The notes under the pieces: model-generated
The model's input: the letters and a program-made list of their open reading frames with translations, nothing else
Told to the model about the DNA's origin: nothing
Database searches by the model: none
Translations under genes and position numbers: made by a program
Part shown: piece after piece, positions 10,407 to 11,939 of the stretch
How the letters are laid out: each line of letters starts with the position of its first letter
Position numbering within the stretch: the stretch's first letter is position 1
NCBI GenBank assembly: GCA_964421485.1
Contig: CAYQYG010000290.1
Span: 1-11,939 of the forward strand
Reading direction: 5' to 3'
Source of the DNA: an uncultured Polyangiaceae bacterium
GTDB taxonomy: Bacteria; Myxococcota_A; Polyangia; Polyangiales; Polyangiaceae
DNA length: 11,939 nucleotides

Positions 10407-11939
10407 TCAGGGGGCGAAGAGGAGGCCGGCGGCGTCGAGCACGTCGGCGAGGCCCGGCGGCGGGGCCGCGCGCAGGGCGTCGATGCCGTGCGCGTGGGCG
10501 CGGGAGGCGCGGCCCTGCGCTATCTCGTGGTAATGGTAGGCGAGGCGGATCAGGGGGTCGGACTCGTCGCGGGCGGCGAGCAGGTCGCGCCAGATCGGGG
10601 CGTCGCATTCGAGGCCGGTCATCAGGCCGGCGTACGCGGCGTGCAGCAGCAGCAGGGCGCCGGGGGGGCCGGCGAGGCGGCCGTGAATGGACGCGAACGA
10701 GGAGGCGAGCGCCTCCCAGGCGAGCGCGACGGGGTACACGGTGAATGGGTTGTCCTCGAGCCAGGCCTCGCCGAGGTCCGGATCGCCGCCGCCGGGCGCG
10801 CCGGCCGCGTGGCGCGCGGCGCCGAGGAGGTGGCCGAGCAGCGAGGCGTCCACGAGATCGCTGAGCAGGAGGGGGACGGCGAGGGGGTTCGCTGTCTCGA
10901 AGAGGATCCGCGGGGGCCAGCCGCCGGCTTCGAGCTCGGCCTCGGTGGTGCGCCAGGCGTAGACGTCCCAGAAGCGGACCTCGTGCGCCGCGCGGGCGGC
11001 GCCCTCCGCGGGCCTCTGGAGGTCCTCGCGCGGCGGCCGGCCGGTGAGGCGATCGGGGTCGATCGCGAGATCGAAGACGAAATCGCGGACGAGGTCGCGG
11101 TGCAGGTCGCCGCCATAGTCACGGAAGAAGGCGCGGACGAAGCCGCGGAGGAGGCCGCGGCCGAAATCGCGGAGGAACGTGCGGCCGATGTCGCGAACGC
11201 CCGCGAGGCCGAAATGGCGGAGGAAGTCGTGGCCGAAGACGCGGACGCCGTCGACGCAGGGGTCGAGGACGGCGTCCCTGCCATAAGCGCGGACGAGCTC
11301 GGCGGCGGCGGCGCGCGGGGGGGCGGCGGGCAGCGCGCCGGCGCGCTGGAACGGCTCGAGGACGGCGCCGATCGCGGCCTCGGCCCACGCGCGCATGCCC
11401 GCCTCGACGCGCGCGCCGAGGGATCGGCCGCCGATCCGCTGCTCGCCGGCGTGCGCGCGGCGCGGGGGGATGGATCCGCCGGGCGGCGCGCGGCGCCGCG
11501 CGGGCAGCGGGGAGGGCGTGGCGGCGCCGGAGAGCGGGAGGGCGAGCGCGTGGAACTCGCCGCGCAGCACGACCCGCGCGGGGCCGAAGTCCCTGGCGAA
11601 CCGGCCGCGCGACTCCAGCTCGGCCGCGAGCTTGCCCGCGATCCAGGCCGTGGCCGCGCGCACTGCCTCGCCCGCCGGCTCGGCGGAGAGCGGGAGATCC
11701 AGGCTCCACGCGTACATCTGGGAGACGCTCTCGTCGCGCAGCGCGGCGAGCCACACCGAGAGCGACGCCGGCTCGTCGAGCCACACGACGTCCGCCGGCT
11801 CCTGCCGCGAGGACGGGCCGGCGTCCGAGGTGGGGCCCTCGGGGCAGGCATCGGGCTCGGGGCGCAGGGCGCGCCACGTGGAGCGCGACCCGGAGCCCCG
11901 AATGTCAGCGGGCTCGGGGCGCAGGGCGCTGTCAGGCGA
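10407..11939 (-). CDS. Hypothetical protein, 5'-partial; the frame stays open to the window edge, so at least 510 aa. It contains six tandem 8-residue repeats (FLRDFGR-like consensus) and two upstream ALRPEP repeats.
   Basis: Codon position 3 is about 90-95% GC in this frame at both 10410-10570 and 11100-11160. The other same-strand ORFs in the track (10622..11851, 11119..11877) are Arg/Pro/Ser-rich and out of phase. No in-frame stop lies between 11786 and 11939. The composition includes W, Y, F, H, D and E, as a real protein would. Confidence 0.5.
   Translation of the reverse strand, partial: SPDSALRPEPADIRGSGSRSTWRALRPEPDACPEGPTSDAGPSSRQEPADVVWLDEPASLSVWLAALRDESVSQMYAWSLDLPLSAEPAGEAVRAATAWIAGKLAAELESRGRFARDFGPARVVLRGEFHALALPLSGAATPSPLPARRRAPPGGSIPPRRAHAGEQRIGGRSLGARVEAGMRAWAEAAIGAVLEPFQRAGALPAAPPRAAAAELVRAYGRDAVLDPCVDGVRVFGHDFLRHFGLAGVRDIGRTFLRDFGRGLLRGFVRAFFRDYGGDLHRDLVRDFVFDLAIDPDRLTGRPPREDLQRPAEGAARAAHEVRFWDVYAWRTTEAELEAGGWPPRILFETANPLAVPLLLSDLVDASLLGHLLGAARHAAGAPGGGDPDLGEAWLEDNPFTVYPVALAWEALASSFASIHGRLAGPPGALLLLHAAYAGLMTGLECDAPIWRDLLAARDESDPLIRLAYHYHEIAQGRASRAHAHGIDALRAAPPPGLADVLDAAGLLFAP
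11067..11240. repeat. Tandem, imperfect 24-bp repeat of about 6-7 units inside the hypothetical CDS. It encodes DFLRHFGL/AGVRDIGR/TFLRDFGR/GLLRGFVR/AFFRDYGG/DLHRDLVR/DFVFDL.
   Basis: Plus-strand units resemble gcggaggaNgccgcggccgaaatc and repeat with period 24. The protein shows period-8 Phe/Leu-Arg-Asp-Phe-Gly-Arg motifs. Confidence 0.7.
11853..11929. repeat. Two copies of a 20-bp direct repeat, gggctcggggcgcagggcgc, at 11853-11872 and 11910-11929. The period is 57 bp and it lies in-frame inside the partial CDS.
   Basis: The two 20-mers are exact copies. Each encodes ALRPEP in the minus-strand frame. Confidence 0.7.

Follow-up and report, generated by a model that had tools for sequence, protein, structure and literature searches.

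A module with a tetrapeptide array, shared by a SIR2-family protein of a Polyangiaceae bacterium and NACHT-containing proteins

We analyzed a stretch of 11,939 nucleotides from an uncultured Polyangiaceae bacterium (positions 1 to 11,939 of contig CAYQYG010000290.1, assembly GCA_964421485.1; hereafter the window), at whose end a minus-strand gene (10407-11939) encodes the C-terminal part of a SIR2-family protein containing a short tandem repeat. The repeat is an array of tetrapeptides, (F-[G/V]-R-D)n, which lies inside a module of ~465 amino acids shared with NACHT-containing, NLR-like proteins. We consider it probable (about 0.6) that this module is the sensor or regulatory part of an NLR-like immune family, fused in the present protein directly to a SIR2 effector that is possibly inactive. 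NLR-like and SIR2 putative immune proteins are well known; what is new is the module, including its tetrapeptide array, and the fusion that lacks NACHT. The preliminary description of the locus had spoken of an uncharacterised protein, a label that proved too weak, as the gene encodes the tail of a SIR2_2-domain protein.

The gene is read in the minus-strand frame that stops at the TGA at 10407-10409 and contains no other stop up to the window end; the remaining two minus frames yield Arg/Pro/Ala-rich nonsense, and one of them contains stops. The GC content at codon positions 1, 2 and 3 is 0.80, 0.57 and 0.945, with values at the third position (GC3) of 0.88-1.00 across all 150-nt blocks, and amid DNA of 68-79% GC this GC3 is strong evidence that the frame is correct. 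The complete product is P0001, a protein of 815 residues named 'SIR2 family protein [Polyangiaceae bacterium]' from the metagenome-assembled genome (MAG) GCA_020848415.1. The window protein was reported to match the last 510 residues of P0001 with 100% identity and coverage, yet one F/V residue differs. Since P0001 has 815 residues against 510 in the window, the gene is 5'-partial with 305 residues outside, and residue n of the window protein is residue n+305 of P0001. The minus frame and the missing 5' end had both been proposed earlier, and both were borne out, the former by the open frame, the GC3 and P0001, the latter by retrieval of the full gene. Base-by-base comparison of window positions 3870-11939 with L001, the contig of P0001, gave four single-nucleotide polymorphisms (SNPs). 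Rfam, terminator and promoter scans of 10200-11939 gave no matches. The gene and its parts, in the order of the protein, are as follows:

10407-11939, minus strand: 3' two-thirds of the SIR2-family gene (510 codons plus stop); open frame, GC3 of 0.945, match to P0001.
11820-11939, minus strand: Pro/Ser/Gly-rich linker that connects the SIR2 domain to the module; direct repeats on L001, AlphaFold2 predicted local distance difference test (pLDDT) below 50.
11520-11762, minus strand: hA, the module's N-terminal helical subdomain (P0001 residues ~365-445); alignment with NACHT relatives, phmmer, pLDDT 78-91.
11247-11519, minus strand: spacer, with Pro/Arg/Ala-rich low complexity and then a conserved helix (W-x-x-x-x-I); alignment A3, pLDDT 47-51 and then 75-88.
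11058-11237, minus strand: degenerate (F-[G/V]-R-D)n tetrapeptide array, 15 in-register units; Tandem Repeats Finder (TRF), autocorrelation, position occupancy.
11177, minus strand: T/G substitution, Phe (window) or Val (P0001) at tetrad position 1, the sole difference from the public assembly within the gene; comparison with L001.
10410-11054, minus strand: junction and conserved all-alpha C-terminal domain (CTD, ~190 amino acids); alignment A1, pLDDT 76-97, phmmer.

The window repeat is real, and its basic unit is four residues long. The units read, in order, FGHD FLRH FGLA GVRD IGRT FLRD FGRG LLRG FVRA FFRD YGGD LHRD LVRD FVFD LAID, with a hydrophobic residue at position 1 in 93%, G/V at position 2 in 60%, R at position 3 in 66% and D/E at position 4 in 60%. 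When the 64-residue stretch was compared with 2000 shuffles of itself, BLOSUM62 autocorrelation gave z scores of 5.0, 6.5, 4.0, 7.2, 4.5 and 4.5 at lags 4, 8, 12, 16, 20 and 24, and lags other than multiples of 4 were all negative. At the DNA level, TRF reported overlapping arrays at 11076-11247 (period 12, 14.3 copies), 11117-11245 (period 24, 5.4 copies) and 11084-11195 (period 48). The appearance of an 8-residue unit arises because Gly and a bulky residue take turns at tetrad position 2, giving FGRD/FVRD-type doublets. The earlier reading of six 8-residue units at 11067-11240 was therefore right about the repeat and wrong about its unit, which is four residues in about 15 tetrads at 11058-11237, or eight octads at 11055-11246 if read in doublets. 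A further RDFG that had been pointed out upstream (RGRFARDFG) is no repeat unit and coincides with the conserved SRxxFA motif of the helical subdomain hA. That the repeat belongs to no named family was confirmed, as neither Pfam nor NCBIfam, nor a PDB sequence search with the array, nor the literature searched for the motif gave a match. A 104-residue ideal array likewise matched nothing in Pfam, repeat families included; pentapeptide and other named repeat families thus gave no Pfam match, and the array has a period of 4.

In relatives, the array directly precedes the same conserved helical domain of ~190 residues. Across eight relatives aligned in register, the tetrad consensus is F (88%), G or V (55% and 26%), R (74%) and D, E or Y (51%, 12% and 13%), to which the window copy conforms less well. 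Some members with the CTD have no recognisable array. A 12-nt period was found in 5/5 loci, with 11.4-31.2 copies and a DNA match of 60-93%:

Window/L001: 14.3 copies, 60% DNA match, the most degenerate array.
L002: 25.7 copies, 78% DNA match, with a 72-nt super-unit at 86%.
L003: ~18 copies, ~70% DNA match.
L004: 11.4 copies, 93% DNA match.
L005: 31.2 copies, 83% DNA match.

TRF indels in these arrays amount to 0-3%, so that the strict register is kept mostly without indels. The 12-nt repeat expands, contracts and is homogenised in the relatives, and since the arrays are duplicated and homogenised while the motif is kept, what is selected is the periodic pattern, with changes of length tolerated. 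The locus had been called rapidly evolving, and this holds at the level of the family, with 11-31 units and a DNA homogeneity of up to 93%.

The array is one element of a module whose order is hA, a beta-hairpin with a variable spacer, the conserved helix, the tetrapeptide array, the junction and the CTD, and alignment A3 (15 sequences) is colinear across the whole 465 residues. The hA subdomain terminates in A-x-x-A-A-x-x-W-[LI]-x-x-K-[IL]-x-x-x-L-x-S-R-x-x-F-A, followed by the beta-hairpin, and its region gave phmmer matches to P0006, P0011, P0003, P0002, P0017 and P0010. The junction motif is [GA]-[IV]-D-P...W in the window protein and G-[VI]-D-P-x-x-P-x-W-E in the family. The CTD carries the motifs NPLAxPLLL, RH, WLxxNP, ALAWE, GRLxGPxGALxLxHAAYAxLMTGL, RDxxDP and a C-terminal AAG, for which the family forms are NPLALPLLL, RH, WLxRNP, ALAWEEHA, RLxGPxGALxLAHAAYAxLMTGL, RDxxDPLI and a terminal AAG. 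In alignment A1 (26 sequences), G151 is invariant, R85, P107, W117, G133, G136, L138, H142, A144 and D170 are conserved in at least 90%, and P0001 retains every one of these invariant and near-invariant residues. A zincin protease site (HExxH) in the CTD was considered and rejected: the LHEICHFRD of many relatives (A1 columns ~190-200, window ~10497-10511) is variable and reads HEIAQ in P0001, its first His is often Tyr and its second L, R, N or G, and neither His belongs to the columns conserved in at least 90%. Pfam, NCBIfam and PADLOC searches gave no match to the module, a PDB sequence search with it returned designed helical repeats only (E 0.009 or worse), and nothing relevant was found in the literature on the motif, on NACHT with a tetrapeptide repeat or on pYEATS with SIR2. 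Judged by its sequence, the module is an unnamed evolutionary unit, described neither in the Pfam, NCBIfam and PADLOC collections nor in the PDB or the literature that could be searched.

In an exhaustive HMMER scan, window residues 46-510 were compared with 1.84 billion representative proteins and gave 44 matches, 30 of them with E below 1e-10 (best E 2e-60), and the CTD was present in 37 (phmmer E below 1e-5). In a word-indexed search the window protein retrieved only P0001 and the 26-sequence CTD alignment nothing, probably through its Ala/Gly/Arg-rich words; a locus search with a six-sequence subset of A1 gave four genome loci and two metagenome loci. The source organisms that are known are myxobacteria, namely Archangium lansingense and one MAG each of the Myxococcaceae and the Myxococcales, and in addition a Thermoanaerobaculia MAG; the phage and plasmid collections searched by tblastn contained no match. 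Four matches (P0036, P0042, P0043 and P0045) were removed from the family, their similarity being limited to the four-residue periodicity. P0042 is a 913-residue Roquin-like (ROQ plus CCCH zinc finger), eukaryote-type protein with 54 consecutive [ML]-[AG]-[RH]-D units (MARD/LGHD), apparently a convergent four-residue repeat of similar chemistry.

Most of the true matches are 1000-1900 residues long, with the similarity in their C-terminal part, and database names such as 'metallophosphoesterase', 'NACHT domain-containing' or 'hypothetical'. A NACHT NTPase is present in 14/14 of the other long members tested (P0002, P0005, P0006, P0010, P0016, P0019, P0023, P0025, P0033 and the proteins of L003-L007; L002 is the gene locus of P0002). 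Their N-terminal effectors include SIR2_2 (L004), CHAT (P0025) and a weak match to the Mrr_cat restriction endonuclease (L005). Several relatives end in a calcineurin-like Metallophos domain directly after the module, a tail that matches the PADLOC 'Effector/Endonuclease' model (E 1e-20) and also the candidate system PDC-S60; many others end at the CTD, among them P0005, P0010, P0016, L005 and L007. In 18 NACHT members, mean pairwise identity is 48% in NACHT, 51% in the post-NACHT region and 46% in Metallophos, and in the parts of the module 29% (hA), 18% (spacer), 21% (array), 14% (junction) and 32% (CTD). The module is thus shown to be an evolutionary unit behind NACHT in proteins with swappable effectors, and to diverge faster than the NACHT core.

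The SIR2 domain of P0001 lies beyond the window end. Pfam SIR2_2 (PF13289) was matched at residues 121-268 with 34.9 bits against a gathering cut-off of 24.5 (E 2e-8); a PDB sequence search with the domain gave no match. Residues 1-313 of P0001 align with residues 1-330 of the L004 protein (E 5e-36) and residues 395-811 with 1161-1549 (E 8e-40). The L004 protein has 1982 residues in the order SIR2-NACHT-module-Metallophos, so that P0001 corresponds to it without the ~830 residues in between (331-1160, including NACHT) and without the Metallophos tail. No NACHT match was found in P0001, the sole NACHT-less member among the 15 long proteins. Its closest SIR2 domains are those of the SIR2_2+pYEATS proteins P0046 and P0047, with 34-35% identity over the whole length (E 1e-32 and 2e-28). 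These two and the L004 protein read LPFRHVLTTNYD at the SIR2 motif, where P0001 reads LPFRHVLTTAYD. P0001 has LTTAYD, in which Ala126 (codon at L001 10376-10378, outside the window) replaces the conserved Asn of TTNYD, and its GFSLxDPD and DxDY motifs are degenerate. His174 of the (Y)LHG motif (YVYLHGR), invariant in the SIR2 alignment, is retained. In ThsA and DSR2 the TTNYD Asn is needed for NADase activity, and with Ala126 in its place the P0001 copy may be inactive; with its array also the most degenerate seen, this copy may be catalytically impaired or a relic.

Between the SIR2 domain and the module, the linker carries an imperfect tandem duplication of ~54 nt, with DIRGSGS-x4/5-ALRPEP twice, which begins just beyond the window end. 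The two in-frame ALRPEP repeats noticed previously near 11853-11929 are real (copies at 11910-11927 and 11853-11870; 24 nt, 96% identical, 57 nt apart) and belong to this larger duplication, for which L001 shows direct repeats D1 (27 nt, 85%) and D2 (24 nt, 96%). It extends over 11853-11939 of the window and 10893-11006 of L001. The duplication may be the scar of a rearrangement that joined SIR2 and the module.

Several known systems resemble the protein in part. Bacterial NLR-related proteins (bNACHT) follow an effector-NACHT-C-terminal sensor plan (Kibby et al., bioRxiv 10.1101/2022.07.19.500537). The other carriers of the module share with them NACHT and the kinds of effector listed for bNACHTs (Mrr-like restriction endonuclease, SIR2 and CHAT), but many add a C-terminal Metallophos, and their C-terminal region has no LRR, TPR, HEAT, beta-propeller, pentapeptide or FGS, its place being taken by the unnamed module with a four-residue repeat. 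P0001 shares this sensor-side region with NACHT proteins over ~465 residues but has no NACHT and thus lacks the P-loop NTPase. With DSR2 and DSR1 it has in common that one gene encodes an N-terminal SIR2_2-type domain and an all-alpha C-terminal region, with no NTPase. SIR2 relatives of P0001 gave weak matches to the Dsr1 and Dsr2 profiles of PADLOC; P0001 itself failed the Dsr2 and ThsA profile tests and was therefore assigned to neither. For Thoeris, no TIR gene (thsB) was found among the P0001 neighbours, and the ThsA profile covers the SIR2 part only. Avs5 is described as SIR2-STAND NTPase-C-terminal region (bioRxiv 10.1101/2024.09.15.613165). The L004 relative is similar in combining SIR2, a NACHT-type STAND NTPase and a C-terminal region; the window protein differs in lacking the NTPase and in a sensor region unrelated in sequence, and no match of P0001 to Avs5 profiles (PADLOC) was significant. 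P0046 and P0047, the former named 'pYEATS domain-containing protein involved in immunity' in one source, are homologous in SIR2, but their C-terminal partner is pYEATS instead of the FxRD module and TTNYD is kept. Pentapeptide repeats, heptad coiled coils, ER/K helices and FG-nucleoporin repeats are likewise short and periodic, with alternating aromatic and charged residues and variable copy number; FxRD differs from them in giving no match to a Pfam repeat family, in its period of 4 instead of 5 or 7 and in a composition of F, G/V, R and D unlike any of them.

The full protein consists, in order, of an N-terminal SIR2_2 domain, the duplicated linker and the all-alpha module. The module would most likely be the ligand-sensing or autoinhibitory part of NLR-like proteins, a role proposed because of its position, a divergence faster than that of the NACHT core and the analogy with the effector-NACHT-sensor plan. 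Within it, the array, its most distinctive element, would most likely form a length-variable helical arm or hairpin between two helical subdomains, for which structural confidence is low, and this arm would carry a stripe of Phe and Asp-to-Arg (i, i+3) ion pairs. P0001 has the module attached directly to SIR2, without the NACHT switch, in a DSR2-like effector-plus-sensor logic.

Several observations weigh against this interpretation. The sensing role is predicted from sequence and analogy; the NACHT-less architecture was seen only once, and in many relatives the module precedes a further effector-like domain, hence it is not always terminal like classical sensors. The neighbourhood of P0001 is housekeeping and no defence island (multihaem cytochromes, YkuD transpeptidase, PAS-STAS, MVP-like and sdh genes), and its matches to the PADLOC profiles of ThsA (E 0.006, SIR2 part 22-189 only) and Dsr2 (E 0.018, 11.1 bits, residues 109-139 only) are marginal. 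AlphaFold2 modelling of the module with alignment A3 gave a predicted template modelling score (pTM) of 0.78, with an all-alpha CTD carrying a small beta-hairpin (pLDDT 76-97) and a confident hA (pLDDT 78-91), but the array is modelled poorly: in P0001 as a pair of long helices (model residues 182-213 and 218-250, pLDDT 41-55) and in a model of the regular array and CTD of P0002 as one helix of 88 residues (pLDDT 31-53), so that the two models disagree, giving a hairpin in one case and a single helix in the other. For the window array, the hydrophobic moment peaks sharply at 90 degrees per residue (1.61) and is 0.11 at 100 and 0.14-0.51 at 160-180, a pattern expected neither of a beta-strand nor of an amphipathic alpha-helix that is ideal and straight; a strict period of 4.0 does not suit an ideal alpha-helix either. 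The models are thus a weak indication that the array is helical, and if it is, the Phe stripe would wind round the helix about once per nine units. Of the two folds suggested at first, the helical-hairpin array agrees with what AlphaFold2 drew (at pLDDT 41-55 only), whereas the beta-solenoid found no support, both runs giving helix and the moment peaking at 90 degrees instead of 160-180.

The poor definition of the array leaves room for another view of it, namely that the FxRD units form a disordered, multivalent 'sticker' linker in which Phe/Arg cation-pi contacts and Arg/Asp pairs drive self-association or assembly after activation. The pLDDT of 31-55 over the array in two independent runs would fit such a linker, as would Gly at 55% of position 2, a copy number that is unconstrained between 11 and 31 units and the low identity of 21% between the arrays of different members. 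Both models nevertheless draw a continuous helix, Gly alternates with Val or another bulky residue, and the strong position-specific conservation (F 88%, R 74%) in strict register is more typical of a structural repeat; we regard the disordered linker as a tentative alternative, clearly less probable than the structured arm.

Equally doubtful, in our judgement, is that the window gene is a remnant that no longer functions or is decaying, namely a fusion formed after loss of the NACHT core that is open by chance or only recently inactivated. Its lack of NACHT, unique among the 15 long proteins, the Ala in place of the conserved Asn with the degenerate GFSLxDPD and DxDY, the duplication scar in the linker and the housekeeping neighbourhood all point this way, and so do the most degenerate array of the loci (60% DNA match) and a spacer that has lost the 'LLCPxL' motif of the relatives and is Pro/Arg-rich and of low complexity instead. 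Against decay, the open reading frame (ORF) is intact over 815 codons with uniform GC3 (0.88-1.00) and no frameshift, the CTD keeps its conserved residues and folds confidently, His174 of YLHG is kept, and a second assembly, distinguished by SNPs, has the same architecture.

Still less likely, the module might be a scaffold or regulatory platform for Metallophos or for partners, reused in the SIR2 fusion for oligomerisation. The Metallophos domain does follow the module directly in several relatives, and the CTD, at 32% identity, shows moderate conservation and has Gly, His and Asp residues that are invariant, but many members have no Metallophos (P0005, P0010, P0016, L005 and L007 among them), and the module diverges faster than NACHT and Metallophos alike.

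The locus had also been put forward as a contingency-type locus, in which the repeat number or a G7 tract would switch expression or alter the protein between strains; we find this very improbable. Homologues that are distantly related do differ widely in repeat number, and the DNA homogeneity of some arrays is 83-93%. The window units match at just 60-68%, however, which is too diverged for efficient slippage, and slippage would in any case leave the frame unswitched since the repeat unit is a multiple of 3 nt. The G7 run exists, in the low-complexity part of the spacer, but at 11317-11323 (coding AAPPRAA) and not at 11315-11321 as first placed, and it is within chance expectation for DNA of 75% GC: seven such runs were observed in the window against 3.9 +/- 2.7 expected, and 34/200 shuffles reached at least seven. 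The comparison of repeat number called for at the outset showed no length difference between the two near-identical assemblies (two sequences only), which differ in the gene by the F/V substitution at 11177 alone. That the repeat is a wrong-frame translation or an assembly artefact is practically excluded by the GC3 of 0.945 in the chosen frame and by the motif recurring, at the same position before the same conserved domain, in at least nine homologues from independent genomes and metagenomes; high-GC DNA does yield long spurious ORFs in other frames, but nothing was found in favour of an artefact here.

A bolder and much less certain reading would see in the array and the CTD a kind of receptor module so far unrecognised in prokaryotic NLR-like immunity, in the repeat a new superstructure with its length set by 12-nt turnover, and in the NACHT-less fusion a sign that the module can serve, without an NTPase, as an autonomous switch or a decoy. 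The superstructure would then be either a helical arm zippered by Phe and laddered by Arg/Asp or a 'sticky' element based on cation-pi contacts, and its length would set ligand specificity or assembly. Sensor domains are the least understood part of the bacterial NLR-like and SIR2 defence proteins that are mined for phage recognition, and the present analysis defines one module of ~465 residues with clear boundaries, conserved residues and a four-residue repeat, found with three effector types and in one natural NACHT-less fusion. Should it be a sensor, the protein would offer a compact system of ~800 residues for coupling recognition to an effector without an NTPase, and should the repeat form a new superstructure, a tetrapeptide class would join the repertoire of LRR, TPR, HEAT and pentapeptide repeats. 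Even as a relic it would be useful for annotation, since databases give only 'SIR2 family', 'metallophosphoesterase' or 'hypothetical'.

Some further observations concern neighbouring genes. The gene directly downstream of the NACHT relative encodes an AAA_21/AbiEii-type ATPase in L004 (8435-9628) and an AAA plus PDDEXK_9 protein in L005 (8705-10270), hints of a defence neighbourhood that is lacking at the window locus. Below ~3870, inside an sdhA-like gene, the window (1-3870) diverges abruptly from L001 with many mismatches and indels, which points to a difference between strains, a boundary of recombination or a chimeric assembly. Within this part, the minus-strand ORF at 984-2087 (367 residues) encodes a stand-alone protein in which an FGE-sulfatase domain was recognised (E 2e-16) and the EB module matched weakly; domains of the FGE-sulfatase type appear among the antigen-receptor-type sensors of bacterial NACHT proteins (bioRxiv 10.1101/2022.07.19.500537). 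Finally, the minus-strand ORF at 5699-8188 (829 residues) matches Pfam MVP_shoulder (E 6e-28) and Vault_3 (E 4e-9) and encodes a major-vault-protein-like protein in this Polyangiaceae genome.

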